Source of the DNA: Leptospira sp.
GTDB lineage: Bacteria; Spirochaetota; Leptospiria; Leptospirales; Leptospiraceae
Direction: 5' to 3'
NCBI GenBank assembly: GCA_034439575.1
Contig: JAWXAQ010000027.1
Coordinates: forward strand, 371,681 to 435,680
DNA length: 64,000 nt
This document shows, piece by piece, positions 3,830 through 9,787 of this stretch. The notes under the pieces were generated by a model. It saw nothing but the letters and a program-made list of their open reading frames with translations, made no database searches and was not told the origin of the DNA. Positions within the stretch are counted from its first letter, which is position 1. Every line of letters begins with the position of its first letter. The translations under genes and the position numbers were made by a program.

Positions 3830-4666
3830 TTAAAAGAGGATTACTTTGCGCGAATTTTTGACTAAGACATCAGGAAGAGACATACCATCGCCACCGAGAC
3901 TTCTCAATCTTTTATTTCCTACATAGAGTATAACGCCCTTGATTCCAAAATTTCCTATCAAACTATAACAAATTTGATCCAATCGATCTTTTAAGATTTC
4001 AGGACTTCCCCCGAATTCTAATTCTTTTGAGAAAGAAACATGCAGTATCCCCTCATCTAGTTTGTAGTTTGTGTCAAATTTAATTCTTTTTGGTAAAGAA
4101 TTCAACACACCTTTTGTTTTTTCCTCTGGACTTGGGCCACGAAGTAATTCACTTAAAATAAAGGAAATCGGATCTCCACCAGGAAATTGGCGAATGACTT
4201 TCACAAGTTGGGATTGGCTATTTTTTCCCTGCCCATAAAATTTTAAAAAATAAATCGGGAGATAAGCGGGGGATTCCTGCAATTTATTTCCGCTACTTCG
4301 AAATGTATCTTCAGGAAGTGTTACTTCTGGAATTGAATTACTATCATCTAACTTTTGTTTATTTGCACTTACTGAAGTTGTATTGGTAATAGGAATTGTG
4401 TTTTCTAATGCTTCTTCTTCCCAAGCTAAATCGTCTTCCCATTCATTTCCAAGGAAAGGATCGTTTGTTCTTTCTGAAAAAGTGGGATTTTTATTTAAAG
4501 AGGAATTACCTAAATTGCGAAAGCTTTCTTTACTCCAATTGGCAGGCATAGTACCGCCAGAAAATCCTAAGGATTTTTCAATCAGTACAAGTACAAATAA
4601 AAGTCCCCCAATCATATAAGAAAGGGATTTCAATTTATCGCTTGGTTGTGGAGGAAGAGGTGCCAC
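3830..4666 (-). CDS. GerMN domain membrane protein
   Basis: N-terminal TM helix; C-terminal ELLRGPSPEE...L.QICYSL...V.LYV pattern typical of GerMN. Confidence 0.75.
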   Translation of the reverse strand: MAPLPPQPSDKLKSLSYMIGGLLFVLVLIEKSLGFSGGTMPANWSKESFRNLGNSSLNKNPTFSERTNDPFLGNEWEDDLAWEEEALENTIPITNTTSVSANKQKLDDSNSIPEVTLPEDTFRSSGNKLQESPAYLPIYFLKFYGQGKNSQSQLVKVIRQFPGGDPISFILSELLRGPSPEEKTKGVLNSLPKRIKFDTNYKLDEGILHVSFSKELEFGGSPEILKDRLDQICYSLIGNFGIKGVILYVGNKRLRSLGGDGMSLPDVLVKNSRKVILF

Positions 4667-4699
4667 ACTCTAATGATCGGAAGGATACAAACTTATTGT

Positions 4700-5383
4700 T
4701 TAAAAAAACTCTTTTAAGGCAGGAAGATCTTGGAATTCCCATTCAAAATTGGGAATTTCGCCAGCAGTCGCATGGCCATAGGAACAATATCCGAATTTAC
4801 AGCCATTTTGTCTCGCCGCTTCCCAATCGCTAAATCTATCTCCGATCAGAGCAATAGATTCAGGTGAAAAATTATATTTTTTGATGTACTCAGACAGAAT
4901 ATCTCCTTTTGTGCAGATATTTTCCTGATTGATCACTAAAATAGGCTCAAAGTAAGCCAAAACGCCCGCAGTTTCCAATACGGTTTCCACATAGGCTCTT
5001 CTACCGTTGGAGGCACAAGTGATGGTATAACCTTTTTCTTTTAAATAATGAATTGTGGAGCCGACACCTGCATAAAAATCTCCGCCACCATTACGGATGG
5101 AATCGCAGAGTAGTTCCAGAACACGGGTAGAAATAGTTTCTCTTTCGCCTTCTGGGAGAGTCGGTAATAGATTGGCAAAAATTTCTCGGACGGGTTTTCC
5201 GATTTGATGCATAATTTCTTCATGCGTCGGAAGATTTGTAATTTTTCCCGTTTTACTGGCAAACTCTTCGATTGCCTGCACATAGGTCTTGAAGATTATG
5301 GATTCAGAGGAAAAAAGAGTGCCGTCGACATCGAAGGCTAACATTTTAATTTCTCCGGGAAAATTTCCAAGCATTAAAGTCAT
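4700..5383 (-). CDS. HAD-superfamily hydrolase (phosphoglycolate phosphatase-like)
   Basis: FDVDGTL motif I, ASNG motif II, K, IGDRFSD motif IV. Start placed at ATG 5383 (uncertain). Confidence 0.85.
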
Positions 5384-5426
5384 AAAAGAATTTGGCAATC
5401 AGAAGGCAAGTAAGGAATTCAGTGTT

Positions 5427-6650
5427 ATGTTATCCTTTTCTTCAAACGAAGAAATATTAAAAAATCGAGAAAATTTGTATTTGCGAACAGATTGGACGGA
5501 TCCAAATTCGCAGCTTCAAAATCGCATTCGCGCGAAAGATCTTTCCCTTTATTTTGCACTTACTGATTCAGAAATTTTGGGAATTCAGGACACGATTCGA
5601 CTCAATGTATCAACGACTCCTTATTATTTAAAACTTTCTGATCCCTTTAATCCCCATTGTCCCATACGTAGAATGATCGTTCCTGATTCTAAAGAAACAA
5701 TTCTTTCACACGAGGAATCACCCGATCCATTACATGAAGAGCGCTTATCTCCTGTTAGGGGGATAACACATATGTATCCGAATCGAGTTTTATTATTTTC
5801 AAATCATTCTTGCAGTGTCTATTGTCGTCATTGTATGCGTGGAAGAAAGGTGTCTGACTCCGAAGAAAGGATGACCAAGGAAGATTTAGAAGCGGCAATT
5901 GATTACATTCGAAAAACAAAAGAGATAGAAGATGTGGTCATTAGCGGTGGTGACCCACTTAACTTGGCTGATGCGAGAATAGATTGGATACTTGGTGAAT
6001 TAGAATCCATAGATCATGTGAAAATTTGTAGGCTTGGGACAAGAAATCCTGTGACTTTGCCTTTTCGCATCACGAAAGAGTTATGCGATATAATAGAAAA
6101 GCACAACACCGAGAAATTATCTATATTTTGTAACACGCAATTCAATCATCCACTAGAATGTACCCCTGAGGCAAAAATAGCCATCTTCTCCTTGTTAAAG
6201 GCTGGAGTTTCGGTAGGGAACCAAGCGGTCTTATTAAAAGGAATCAATAACGATCCAGAGATCATGTTATCATTACATAAAAAATTATTAGAAATGCGAG
6301 TCAGGGCTTATTATTTATACGATCCAGAATTGATTCCAGGTTCAAGAGGATTTAGGACACCTCTAGGAAAAGGAATAGAAATTATAGAATATATGCGGGG
6401 AAAAATTTCAGGAATGGGCATTCCACAGTTTGTAAATGATTTACCTGGGGGTGGTGGAAAAATAACCATGTCACCTAACTGGTATTTGGGTTATTATGAA
6501 AAAACAAGACAACATGCCTTTGTTTCTGCCATCACAGGAAAAATTCATTTTTCCTATGAACCCATTGATGCTGAAAATAATTATAACTATAAAAAGATAA
6601 CAGAAGAAATGTGGGAAACATATCATGAAAACGATACTTCTCGCAGTTGA
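5427..6650 (+). CDS. KamA-family radical SAM/PLP aminomutase (lysine 2,3-aminomutase-like)
   Basis: [45 protein letters not shown] lysine motif PGGGGK. ATG 5427 is preceded by TAAGGA; the track start at 5289 overlaps the HAD gene. Confidence 0.9.
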
Positions 6651-7629
6651 TATCTATGAAAATGGACCAAAACTTTGGAATCAGGAATGGGAATCGAAAG
6701 ATTCCATTCTCGGGATAAAAGATGCCCTGATTTCGCTTGGGTATACAGTAGATATTTTGGAAAAACAATCTGAAATTCTCAAATATATTTTAGATTTTAT
6801 AGAAAATCATAATCCAGAAAATTTGACAGTTTTTAACTTGGTCGAAGGATTTCGTTCCAGAAATAGGGAAGCATACATACCTTCGTTATGCGAATATTTA
6901 GGAGTTTCTTATACGGGATCTGATTCTTATTCACAAATTTTGACTCTGGATAAAAATATTAGCAAAACAATAATTAGAGAATTAGGAATATATACACCAA
7001 ACTCTAGTTTGCTGACAAAAGGAAATATTCAAATACACAATCTTTTCTTTCCTTTATTCCTCAAACCAAATGCTGAAGGTTCAAGTCTAGGTATCAATGC
7101 CAATAATATAGTTGAAGATAGGGAAGGATTTAATTTAGTTTTGACAGACCTATTTAAAAACTTCGATGAAGTTTTGGTAGAAGAATTTGTTGATGGAGAA
7201 GATCTAACGATTGGATTACTCGGATATGAAGGTAAGTATTTCATAACGGAAGGCGCCCGCATCTCTTATGAAGATGAAGTTTATTCGGAAAATATTAAAT
7301 CTAAAGAAGGTAGACCTGAACGATTGCATTTTGATGTATCTGATCAAATCAACAAACAATTGAAAGAGATTGTTTTAAAAATCGCCTATCGAATGAAGAT
7401 ACTTGGACCTGCAAGGTTTGACTTCAGATTGCAAGCAGAGAAATTATTTTTTTTGGAGATCAACCTGACTCCCGGTTTATCTTCGATTTATTCCACCTTA
7501 CCAATCCTTTGCGAAAAATCAGGTCTAACGTATTCACAAATGATGACATTTATTCTTGAATCTAGTGATTGGAATTATAAAAACAATCTTTCTTTTTCTT
7601 ATGGGAAACGAGGAATTTCTTATGCATGA
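6625..7629 (+). CDS. D-Ala-D-Ala ligase-like ATP-grasp amide ligase
   Basis: YTGSD...[31 protein letters not shown]. Has FNLVEG..R instead of the HG..GEDG motif of true Ddl. Overlaps the aminomutase gene. Confidence 0.85.
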
Positions 7630-8302
7630 TTTTTTATTGTCCTTACAGTCCGATGTGAAAGAACATTCGGTCCTTAAACATCCTTGGCTCAAGTCCAGGG
7701 AAAAAGCTATCAACTTACAAGACTTAATTTATTGGCTGTCACAGGAATATTTTGTTTCGATAGGATTCGTAGATTGGTTTTTAAAAGTAGCGGCAAAAAC
7801 TTCAAATCAATATGCAAAAATAGTTTTGGTTCAAAATATTTGGGAAGAACTAGGGGAAGGTGATCTTGGTCAAACCCATGTTTCTATTCTAGAACAATTT
7901 TTGCTCAAACTAGGTATTGACCCGAAAAAAAATGAAATTTTTCCTGAAACTGCTTCTTACTTAAATGATATGGAAGATATTATTGAAAATGGTTTTTATT
8001 ATGGATTAGGTGCCCTAGGGCCCGCAAATGAATACCTTTTAAAATTAGAATATTCTAAAATATCTGAAAGTTACCAAAGGCTTAGATTAGAGAATAATTT
8101 GCCCGAAGGTAAATTTTTCCAAGTGAATCTAGATGCAGATGAAGGACATAGCAAAAGACTATTTGATTTGATTGCAAGTGTCGCAACCAATGCGAAGGAA
8201 AGAGAAGAAGTATCAATGGGGAACAAACTTGCATTAAACGCTAGAGAACAATTCTATTTTGGCTTGGAGAGGGTTTCTCCAAGCATTTTTAATGTTCACT
8301 AA
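7622..8302 (+). CDS. Heme-oxygenase-like diiron enzyme (TenA/PqqC/CADD superfamily)
   Basis: HPW near the N-terminus, NIWEELG...H, ANE, FFQVNLDADEGH. ATG 7622 with GAGGA RBS, overlapping the ligase stop. Confidence 0.8.
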   Translation: MHDFLLSLQSDVKEHSVLKHPWLKSREKAINLQDLIYWLSQEYFVSIGFVDWFLKVAAKTSNQYAKIVLVQNIWEELGEGDLGQTHVSILEQFLLKLGIDPKKNEIFPETASYLNDMEDIIENGFYYGLGALGPANEYLLKLEYSKISESYQRLRLENNLPEGKFFQVNLDADEGHSKRLFDLIASVATNAKEREEVSMGNKLALNAREQFYFGLERVSPSIFNVH

Positions 8303-8637
8303 AGTTTATGTCTGATTTTTTTTAATAAAACAAAGAGAAACATTCCCATAAAGGGGACAAGCGGCAAATAAAGTAAAAACACTAAATATTTGTATTTTTT
8401 GGTAAAATGCAGTAATTTTCGAAAAGCAAAAAAACCTGGGTAACGAATTCCATTGTAAACAAATTGGACTTCACCTTGGCATTTTTCATAAGTCAATTCG
8501 GAATGGATTTTTAATAAATCAGTTTCTTTCAGATCATGATAAGATAAAAATTCTATATCACTCGTTTGTTTTTTAAGATATGTCGCAAGTCGTAGACAAA
8601 AATCACAATTTCCATCAAAGATAAAGTACCTGTTCAT
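8299..8637 (-). CDS. DCC1-like thiol-disulfide oxidoreductase (DUF393)
   Basis: N-terminal FDGNCDFC (DxxCxxC) motif, 112 aa. Confidence 0.8.
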   Translation of the reverse strand: MNRYFIFDGNCDFCLRLATYLKKQTSDIEFLSYHDLKETDLLKIHSELTYEKCQGEVQFVYNGIRYPGFFAFRKLLHFTKKYKYLVFLLYLPLVPFMGMFLFVLLKKIRHKL

Positions 8638-8644
8638 TTAATAT

Positions 8645-9787
8645 TTAAAAAAAATCTTCAGGCATATTTTTTAAAAATTGTATCACTTCAGGAATTTGTT
8701 CTCTCGGCATTTCAAGCCAATAGTAATACCATGTATCATCTTTTTCAATCCCTTGTGCCACTTTCATATACCATTTGTTGATGTTATTGTTTGGTTTTGC
8801 CCGCCAAAATAAGGGAAGGGTTTCTTTTAATATTAAATCCCAAATATCTCTGCCAACGCCCGCACCCCTTGCCGTTTCATTGACTGCAAATTTTGATAGT
8901 AAATAGCCGTATTTTGTTTTGTTTAACCAAGCACATCCTTGGTATGAGTCTTCTAAATATAATACATCAAATTTAGATTTTTTGAAATCCTCATTTAACT
9001 TTTTTTTGAAACTATTTTCAATGAGTAAAAAAAGTTGGGTAGAATTGACTTCGCTAAAGTCTAGGCATTTAAGAATTTTATTCTCGCGTTTAACTAAGGT
9101 TCCACTTCCTTTAACAGTAAATAGTTCGCGAAGTAATGTATAAGGTGATGTAAGAACCACTGTAAATTTAGGATCATTGCATTTTTGGACTAATGATTCT
9201 GCCAAAACTAAAAATTGTATGTCTCTATCTGATTCCGAAAGGGAACTATTTGATTTGTAACTTTCTAAGATTTCTCCAGTAGGTATAAGAGATATGACCT
9301 TTCCCGTATCTTCATTATATATTGGTCCATCGTGATGAAGTTGTATCACCTTATTGATGTTTAGTGATTTTATTATTTTTAGAATAAATGCATCTAATAA
9401 AAAATTCGATTTATTCCATATTAATATGGGTATTCGTTTGTGTTGGATAGATTCTTTTACTTGTATAAAGATCGAATTTAAATCAGTGATAATTTGGTAT
9501 GGAAATCCGACTCCAGCACCTGCATTTGATTTTTTGGGAGGAAAAAATAAACTGAGATATTGAACTGATTCTTCTTCCAAAACAAGGACTGGGAATAATT
9601 CAAGACGAGTTAGAAGTTTGATGTCAGAAAATAATGCTTCCGAACTTTCCATGATGGTATTGACATCTGCATAAAGTAAGGCGAAACTTTCTGGTGATAA
9701 GGATTTAAATTCTTCTAAGAAGTGAAGGCCATCGCGAGGATCCCTTGTGATTTCAAAAACTTTGGCGAGTATGTCCTTCGAATTCAT
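8645..9787 (-). CDS. N-acetylglutamate synthase-like protein (degenerate AAK domain + DUF619/NAT domain)
   Basis: ELFTVKGSGTL linker, LSKFAV...ARGAGVGRDIW, LFWRA...INKWY, typical of ArgA-B/vertebrate-type NAGS. Confidence 0.75.
   Translation of the reverse strand: MNSKDILAKVFEITRDPRDGLHFLEEFKSLSPESFALLYADVNTIMESSEALFSDIKLLTRLELFPVLVLEEESVQYLSLFFPPKKSNAGAGVGFPYQIITDLNSIFIQVKESIQHKRIPILIWNKSNFLLDAFILKIIKSLNINKVIQLHHDGPIYNEDTGKVISLIPTGEILESYKSNSSLSESDRDIQFLVLAESLVQKCNDPKFTVVLTSPYTLLRELFTVKGSGTLVKRENKILKCLDFSEVNSTQLFLLIENSFKKKLNEDFKKSKFDVLYLEDSYQGCAWLNKTKYGYLLSKFAVNETARGAGVGRDIWDLILKETLPLFWRAKPNNNINKWYMKVAQGIEKDDTWYYYWLEMPREQIPEVIQFLKNMPEDFF

Follow-up and report, generated by a model that had tools for sequence, protein, structure and literature searches.

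We analysed a 64,000-nucleotide stretch of a Leptospira sp. genome (assembly GCA_034439575.1, contig JAWXAQ010000027.1, positions 371,681 to 435,680 of the forward strand; hereafter the window), in which three co-directional genes on the plus strand form a compact operon at positions 5427–8302. In order, they encode a KamA-family aminomutase, an ATP-grasp ligase with the fold of D-Ala-D-Ala ligase (Ddl) and a heme-oxygenase-like dimetal protein (HDO). We propose that these genes make up a single operon that would produce a small oxidised beta-amino-acid amide from a basic amino acid, a reading argued from sequence to which we assign a probability of about 0.5.

Several lines of evidence favour this reading. 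The three genes are spaced by −26 to +15 nt, and the HDO gene stands beside the ligase gene in 43 of 44 genomes. All three proteins retain their catalytic residues, and the housekeeping roles of Ddl and of elongation factor P (EF-P) modification are filled by other genes. A KamA gene is independently linked to an ATP-grasp gene in 6 of 7 loci from other spirochaete families. The nearest solved relatives of the HDO process lysine, namely HrmI by fold and BesC by sequence. Leptospira is aerobic, and an O2-dependent enzyme is found in the Leptospira lineage, with a GNAT form in other spirochaetes.

A tightly packed operon conserved in Leptospiraceae

Open reading frame (ORF) calling places the three genes in overlapping frames, with 26 bp shared by KamA and the ligase (6625–6650) and 8 bp shared by the ligase and the HDO (7622–7629). 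A first-pass annotation of the window had described the same three overlapping same-strand genes, and the ORF coordinates bear it out. Pfam likewise confirmed the flanking genes that it named, a divergent HAD gene and a convergent DUF393 gene. Its three family assignments were right, each protein scoring above cut-off against its family model (TIGR00238, Dala_Dala_lig_C and PF14518). The lengths of orthologs, 401–425 aa for full-length KamA and 219–235 aa for the HDO, agree with starts at 5427 and 7622.

Relatives of the HDO in reference genomes define 27 confirmed loci, all of them from Leptospira or Leptospiraceae. All 27 contain the ligase gene and 25 contain KamA; the two without it begin inside the ligase at a contig end. 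Gene order and the predicted spacing given above (with start codons chosen by a script heuristic) are the same in 25 related loci and the window, at identities of 33–48% for the ligase and 51–69% for the HDO. Such tight spacing in the face of 33–69% identity makes the arrangement more than chance.

We then surveyed 300 other Spirochaetota genomes, 45 from Leptospiraceae and 255 from other families. The HDO occurs in 44 of the 45 Leptospiraceae and in none of the 255 genomes of other families, and a ligase ortholog is present in all 45. Comparison of coordinates shows that 43 of the 44 HDO-bearing Leptospiraceae genomes have the HDO gene directly beside the ligase gene. This pattern is the opposite of a trio not conserved together, an outcome that the first-pass annotation had named as counting against its proposal.

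An aminomutase with an altered substrate motif

The first protein belongs to the KamA family of radical-SAM enzymes that use pyridoxal phosphate (PLP). It scores 279.4 bits against the KamA subfamily model TIGR00238 (cut-off 199.2), also matches LAM_C and Radical_SAM, and aligns with lysine 2,3-aminomutase (2a5h) at E 9.3e-92. Its scores fall below the cut-off of every equivalog model: AblA (371.6 bits, cut-off 525.4), the glutamate (357.8, cut-off 650) and arginine (295.9, cut-off 600) enzymes, and EpmB (200.1, cut-off 369.3). The CSVYCRHC cluster motif and the GGGGK motif with its PLP lysine (K337 of 2a5h) are invariant in 26 trio KamAs, and R134 and D330 of 2a5h are retained in the operon enzyme.

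The substrate pocket is altered at one motif. All 26 full-length trio KamAs (the window, 24 Leptospira loci and G149, a genome of the sister genus), and also the KamA of G290, a genome of a fifth genus, read Y[LM]YDPE in place of YQCD(293). D293 of 2a5h is thereby exchanged for the Glu of YDPE; 2a5h itself, the cassette KamAs of other spirochaetes described below and an efp-adjacent paralog in the window genome have YQCD or HQCD. We take D293 and D330 of 2a5h to be the residues that hold the epsilon-amine of lysine, and glutamate mutases presumably have Lys and Asn at the corresponding pocket positions. Because acidic pocket residues are retained, the operon KamA likely acts on a basic amino acid and a glutamate mutase is disfavoured. 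The change to YDPE in turn means that lysine is not secure as its substrate.

Two specific identities were considered and rejected. Lysine 2,3-aminomutase proper (the AblA/KamA equivalog) conflicts with the AblA score and with the replacement of D293 by Glu, and EpmB conflicts with the EpmB score and with the presence of a different KamA paralog next to efp. In a quick tree the KamAs form three clades (trio, efp-adjacent and cassette), of which the trio and efp-adjacent clades join at 91 in the Shimodaira–Hasegawa-like approximate likelihood ratio test (SH-aLRT), at a node that is not starred. The trio KamA may have originated by duplication of the efp-linked gene or by descent from a cassette KamA.

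A Ddl-fold ligase that is not the housekeeping Ddl

The second protein matches Pfam Dala_Dala_lig_C (PF07478) at 99.8 bits (cut-off 24) and reaches 134.5 bits on the best curated Ddl model (cut-off 243). Its predicted model has a predicted local distance difference test score (pLDDT) of 89.5 and shows the full three-domain Ddl fold, with TM-scores of 0.71–0.78 to Ddl structures. In E. coli DdlB numbering, K97, K144, K215, R255, D257, E270 and N272 are invariant in the ligase alignment, and the S150/S151 and S281 positions are kept. H63 is replaced by Glu within a shared FNLxEG motif, and the Y216 position is lost; we take both to be D-Ala-site residues of Ddl. An N-terminal QEWES or AEFDS motif sets this ligase group apart.

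D-Ala-D-Ala ligase was rejected as the identity of this protein on account of the Ddl score below cut-off, the H63E replacement, the absent Y216 and a separate Ddl in the genome. The TAL-effector chains that appeared in a PDB sequence search with the ligase are an artefact, produced by summing weak matches of a 25-residue stretch (residues 284–310) to the TAL-effector repeat.

Genome-wide searches account for both housekeeping roles. The window genome (4.1 Mb, 99.98% complete) encodes a bona fide Ddl elsewhere (NF011170, 515.6 bits, cut-off 489), and its only ATP-grasp matches to the operon ligase are two, the ligase itself and this Ddl (50.6 bits). It also encodes a second KamA paralog of 354 aa, 45% identical to the operon KamA, divergent to efp on another contig. 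This paralog scores higher on AblA than on EpmB (432.3 against 280.7 bits). Together with efp and an EpmA-like gene, it looks like the EF-P beta-lysylation set of Leptospira. One efp-family gene only was found in the genome. Neither efp nor epmA occurs in the surveyed flanks of the operon, in agreement with the first-pass annotation; both are on another contig.

By sequence comparison, then, the Ddl and EF-P roles are excluded for the operon ligase and aminomutase. The first-pass annotation had allowed that the ligase might be the genome's only ddl, or that the aminomutase might group with EpmB and serve EF-P. Neither holds, given the separate Ddl in the one case and, in the other, the efp-linked paralog in a clade of its own and the EpmB score of the operon enzyme.

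An HDO with an invariant asparagine at a metal-ligand position

The third protein matches PF14518 (Haem_oxygenas_2, "iron-containing redox enzyme") at 96.6 bits (cut-off 28.9), and its predicted model (pLDDT 96.8) has the seven-helix heme-oxygenase-like fold. The top Foldseek matches are HrmI (TM-score by query, TMq, 0.79–0.81), BesC (0.78) and CADD-like proteins (0.74–0.78), with PqqC, TenA and FlcD also found. Among solved structures the best sequence match is BesC (7twa, E 1.5e-9), and matches to the CADD family are weak (TIGR04305, 50.7 bits, cut-off 200; 9pj4, E 2.3e-4).

We also considered a CADD-type self-sacrificing synthase of para-aminobenzoate (pABA) and rejected it on the TIGR04305 score and on the presence of PabB-type genes and DHPS in 4 of 4 Leptospiraceae genomes tested, including G149, which has no HDO. 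The PabB-type genes score 287–339 bits (cut-off 328, passed in one), and with DHPS in the same four genomes a CADD-type pABA synthase is not needed.

Five of the six canonical metal ligands are kept: E76, H86, E137, D173 and H176. At the remaining position, where the HxxxD/ExxH motif of helix 3 has its first His, stands Asn169, which is invariant in 28 of 28 Leptospiraceae HDO orthologs; the residue is His in BesC, in the CADD-type pABA synthase and in HrmI. The ligands thus amount to 2-His/1-Asn/3-carboxylate (2H/1N/3C) and do not make up the 3-His/3-carboxylate (3H/3C) or 3H/4C primary set. Some distant HDO relatives, including a Streptomyces cluster, share the Asn. The accessible text of a 2026 review gives 3H/3C, 3H/4C and a mononuclear variant as HDO ligand sets and contains neither "Asn" nor "asparagine" (PMC13108848). 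As far as that text extends, the 2H/1N/3C set appears to be undescribed.

Close relatives of the protein are few. An exhaustive search of 1.84 billion representative proteins returned three at E ≤ 1e-30, the next full-length protein being 41% identical and the rest at most 35%, which marks the Leptospira HDO as an isolated clade. Generic PF14518 clusters were all that the ESM Atlas yielded for it.

A metagenome scan, queried with an alignment of Streptomyces-type Asn-variant HDOs, turned up another gene arrangement. In one locus (L087:8-6676, GC 0.67), genes for an AMP-binding enzyme and a thioesterase accompany those for a KamA-like protein (528 aa, 32% identical) and an HDO-cupin fusion, an architecture that we take to resemble SznF. 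With its aminomutase and fused HDO, this locus is a candidate for a separate pathway. Three soil metagenome loci (L057:412-2301, L058:776-2764 and L061:81-1976) carry an Asn-variant HDO about 30% identical to the window HDO, followed by two conserved ORFs of 158–165 aa and 240–243 aa with no Pfam match.

A likely derived form of a wider spirochaete cassette

Homologs of the ligase extend beyond Leptospiraceae, to 65 of the 255 genomes of other families, where they score 74–125 bits, against 50.6 bits for the window genome's own Ddl. We examined seven of the better-scoring loci. In six, a KamA gene (42–45% identical) lies directly upstream of the ligase homolog (28–32% identical, 120–136 bits); in the seventh the ligase homolog stands alone. 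Five of the six KamA loci include a second ATP-grasp, as a fusion in two and as a gene of its own in three; the remaining one is cut off by a contig edge. A small GNAT protein, nearest to RimI (37.7–51.2 bits, cut-off 86.4), is likewise encoded in five of the six. The cassette KamAs keep the YQCD motif and score 452–521 bits on AblA (cut-off 525.4). In one cassette an HDAC-like amidohydrolase (L049:4549-6309, minus strand; PF00850, 258.7 bits) is encoded between the fused double ATP-grasp and the GNAT.

The Leptospira operon resembles this cassette of KamA, two ATP-grasp enzymes and GNAT in that KamA is directly upstream of a homologous Ddl-fold ligase, tightly packed and co-directional. It differs in carrying an HDO instead of the second ATP-grasp and the GNAT, both of which are absent from the operon. 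Its KamA differs as well, forming a separate clade, carrying YDPE where the cassette enzymes have YQCD, and scoring 371.6 bits on AblA as against 452–521. Since the window genome contains no third KamA and no second ATP-grasp of the cassette kind, the Leptospira operon reads as a derived form of the cassette. A Leptospira-specific variant of a widespread, uncharacterised KamA–ligase cassette is a better description of the trio than a stand-alone minimal pathway.

A proposed pathway

Judging from the families of the three enzymes, KamA would take a basic L-amino acid, either lysine or a near analogue, and shift its alpha-amino group to C3. The Ddl-fold ligase would then link this beta-amino acid to a partner by forming an amide, proceeding via an acyl-phosphate. 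In a last, O2-dependent step, the HDO would oxidise the product, at its free amine end or on its side chain, by N-oxygenation as in HrmI, or by desaturation or fragmentation as in BesC and MboA. The HDO would thus act in place of the cassette's second ligase and acetyltransferase. Its coupling to KamA and the ligase in one pathway is probable, not proven.

A fuller scenario is tentative, and we think it somewhat unlikely. Leptospira, including the pathogens, may make a genus-specific, O2-dependent metabolite with a re-tooled KamA (YDPE, possibly not acting on lysine), one amide-forming Ddl-fold ligase and a new, possibly heterobimetallic, 2H/1N/3C subclass of HDO that would N-oxygenate, desaturate or fragment its substrate. 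The oxidase would have replaced the acetyl-capping and second ligation of an ancient anaerobe cassette when the lineage turned aerobic.

Weighing the alternatives

Several observations weigh against one pathway to an oxidised amide. With Asn as one metal ligand, a canonical diiron site is not assured in the HDO, which by fold resembles HrmI and BesC only slightly more closely than it does CADD-like proteins (TMq 0.74–0.78). Among 66 metagenome loci with distant HDO relatives, many of them on contigs shorter than 3 kb, none has an ATP-grasp gene and a single one, L087, has a KamA-like gene. Moreover, a 10-gene block running from a GGDEF gene to bacterioferritin is syntenic throughout Leptospira, so conservation of the trio within the genus is largely vertical and, taken alone, weak evidence of functional coupling.

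Two genomes also depart from the pattern. G149 has no HDO match, and its KamA and ligase genes lie in unchanged synteny, in the order HAD, KamA, ligase, a third slot, then DCC1-like, NAT and THUMP genes. The third slot is occupied by a gene for a YgjP-like metallohydrolase, whose relatives were found in 2 of 4 other family genomes searched, at 27–29% identity and located elsewhere. In G290, KamA (with YDPE) and the ligase share one contig and the HDO ortholog, 53% identical, lies on another. There, KamA and the ligase are followed by ORFs that match no known family, and tblastn with a 227-aa ORF of this genome found no relative in the Leptospira loci.

The two exceptions make KamA and the ligase a stable core, with the HDO a frequent but not obligatory partner. 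The "minimal pathway" of the first-pass annotation accordingly survives in its operon structure. As a self-contained unit it does not, being a derivative of a broader cassette with block-wide synteny and an HDO that is not obligate.

The same exceptions fit an arrangement of two functions on one transcript, in which KamA and the ligase make a beta-lysine-type amide and the HDO is an unrelated enzyme of the CADD, PqqC or TenA kind, serving cofactor or vitamin chemistry and merely co-transcribed. G149 keeps KamA and the ligase without the HDO, the unlinked HDO of G290 sits amid housekeeping genes, and there are weak CADD-family matches (TIGR04305, 50.7 bits; 9pj4, E 2.3e-4). We nevertheless think this rather unlikely: ligase and HDO are translationally coupled (−8 to +15 nt) across three genera, none of the 45 family genomes sampled has the HDO but lacks the ligase, TIGR04305 is far under its cut-off of 200, and PabB-type genes and DHPS are present in the 4 of 4 genomes tested.

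Protein modification is less probable again. Here the ATP-grasp enzyme would attach the beta-amino acid to a carboxylate or amine group on a protein for subsequent oxidation, as an analogue of EpmB/EpmA/EpmC with another target. The genome already has an efp-linked KamA paralog, an EpmA-like ligase and one efp-family gene, the operon contains no candidate target gene, and the ligase has the small-molecule fold of Ddl; these points stand against the shared three-part logic of aminomutase, ligase and oxygenase (EpmC is a hydroxylase) and against the nearness of the parent-cassette GNAT to RimI. ATP-grasp enzymes such as RimK modify proteins.

We regard a role in the cell wall, which the first-pass annotation had offered as an alternative, as very improbable. 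The Ddl-like ligase would then make an alternative peptidoglycan dipeptide, or a side-chain branch, with a beta-amino acid. Support for this idea ends with the Ddl fold and its kept S150/S151 and S281 positions: the ligase scores below all Ddl and Van cut-offs, H63 is Glu and Y216 is missing, its neighbours include no mur, fem or other wall genes, and the canonical Ddl is encoded elsewhere.

Lysine catabolism or fermentation starting from beta-lysine is the least credible alternative. The KamA family serves lysine fermentation in clostridia. The operon places KamA beside genes for a ligase and an oxygenase rather than kamDE, kdd, kce or kal. A search with PF09043 (beta-lysine 5,6-aminomutase alpha) gave no match in the genome, a weak argument given that a control search also found none in 14 genomes. 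On the other side, in the accessible part of a biofilm transcriptome paper an L. interrogans ablA is assigned to lysine degradation (PMC11442865).

Genomic context

Coordinates of the operon, its flanks and the related loci discussed above are collected in Table 1.

Table 1. Features of the operon region (window positions) and of related loci elsewhere (locus positions).
Feature	Position	Strand	Details
KamA-family radical-SAM/PLP 2,3-aminomutase, altered substrate motif	5427..6650	+	407 aa; ORF 5289..6650, ATG at 5427
Ddl-fold ATP-grasp carboxylate-amine ligase	6625..7629	+	334 aa
Heme-oxygenase-like dimetal protein (HDO), PF14518	7622..8302	+	226 aa; ORF 7556..8302, ATG at 7622
Divergent HAD-family phosphatase	4700..5398	-	Pfam HAD_2 80.3 bits; conserved neighbour
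DCC1-like protein (PF04134, former DUF393), convergent	8299..8637	-	Pfam
Intergenic gap HAD/KamA, presumed operon promoter region	5345..5426	.	Inferred; assumes HAD start at ATG 5344, not upstream TTG 5398
Terminator-like hairpin, 10-bp stem and T-rich tail	8262..8284	+	Consensus match; within last 40 nt of HDO gene, where the convergent DCC1-like gene meets it
efp-adjacent KamA paralog and efp	L005:1444-3143 (G000, the window genome, contig C16)	divergent pair	efp loop reads PGKGSAF
EpmA-like gene	L033:1468-2448		About 11 kb from efp/KamA paralog; 255.1 bits, cut-off 286.9
YgjP-like metallohydrolase in third slot of G149	L046:6145-6861	-	PF01863 162.4 bits; 3 nt after ligase
HDO run of G290: leuA, hisC, bpt-like, HDO, MFS	L125:331-5426		Tightly spaced; bpt-like arginyltransferase homolog 106.8 bits, cut-off 170

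The HAD gene adjoins KamA in 23 of 27 Leptospira loci, the remaining four ending at contig edges, and is also kept in G149. It is absent at the KamA locus of G290 and in the KamA cassettes of other spirochaetes.

Regulatory signals around the operon were sought by several means. A promoter scan found 13 sites, no excess over the 15.2 ± 3.4 in shuffled sequences, and no Rfam family matched window positions 4000–9500 at E ≤ 0.1, which leaves no riboswitch lead. Terminator-like sites at 4600–8800 number four, against 2.9 ± 2.3 in shuffles, likewise no excess; the hairpin of Table 1 is the sole one found on the plus strand, and none lies between the three operon genes. GC content is 0.33–0.39 over the region, the same as in its surroundings, and so gives no sign of recent insertion.

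Two genes from the operon, at 8645–9787 on the minus strand, lies the gene for a 380-aa protein with a NAT (N-acetylglutamate-synthase-type) domain, which scores 467.6 bits on an "acetylglutamate kinase" model (cut-off 819). This gene is kept in 26 of 27 Leptospira loci and in G149.

Relation to known systems and significance

Mangotoxin biosynthesis is the best published analogue of the proposed pathway. In the accessible part of its description, the ATP-grasp enzymes MboC and MboD assemble a tripeptide, on which the HDO MboA subsequently desaturates an arginine side chain (PMC13185094). The order is thus ATP-grasp ligation, then HDO oxidation of a basic side chain on the ligated product. As far as that description goes, mangotoxin differs in having no aminomutase and no beta-amino acid, and MboA needs a dedicated reductase, MboB, whereas the Leptospira operon has none. 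The same text reports 1447 HDOs near ATP-grasp genes and at least 25 types of biosynthetic gene cluster (PMC13185094); because it describes a filter for likely binuclear-cofactor proteins, an Asn variant might have been excluded from that count.

Other systems share individual components with the operon. The beta-ethynylserine pathway combines an ATP-grasp enzyme (BesA) with an HDO (BesC), and BesC is both the best sequence match and a top fold match to the operon HDO. The two HDOs differ in that the operon protein scores 44 bits on the BesC equivalog model (cut-off 500), is 20–21% identical to BesC and has Asn169 in place of His; the operon also lacks a halogenase and a PLP enzyme such as that pathway has. 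Of the L-lysine N6-oxygenases HrmI and BelK, HrmI is the top Foldseek match (TMq 0.79–0.81). HrmI differs in sequence (18% identity), in its length of about 340 aa with an extra N-terminal part, and in its ligands, 3H/3C against 2H/1N/3C. According to the accessible text of the HDO review, BesC fragments 4-chloro-lysine and HrmI carries out lysine N6-oxygenation (PMC13108848), chemistry which shows that HDOs of this shape handle lysine-type amines.

In AblA/AblB, the N-epsilon-acetyl-beta-lysine system, and in EpmB/EpmA, a KamA-family enzyme likewise feeds a beta-amino acid to a dedicated transferase or ligase. The Leptospira operon differs from both in having no GNAT and no class-II ligase resembling an aminoacyl-tRNA synthetase, and its scores do not reach the equivalog cut-offs.

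We found no paper that assigns the trio a function; it may be drawn in Figure S2C in the supplement of PMC13185094. New here are the KamA–ligase core, the exceptions at the HDO slot (the YgjP-like gene and the unlinked HDO), the YDPE motif and the invariant Asn of the HDO.

Of the 45 other Leptospiraceae genomes sampled, 43 have the operon, and they include clades that hold the agents of leptospirosis. If our proposal is true, it would define a new Leptospira metabolite and would open a chemical route into the far more widespread, still unsolved cassette of KamA, two ATP-grasp enzymes and GNAT. It would also add a beta-amino-acid branch to the pathways that combine ATP-grasp enzymes with HDOs (Bes and mangotoxin), and would extend the HDO superfamily by a set of metal ligands that includes Asn.

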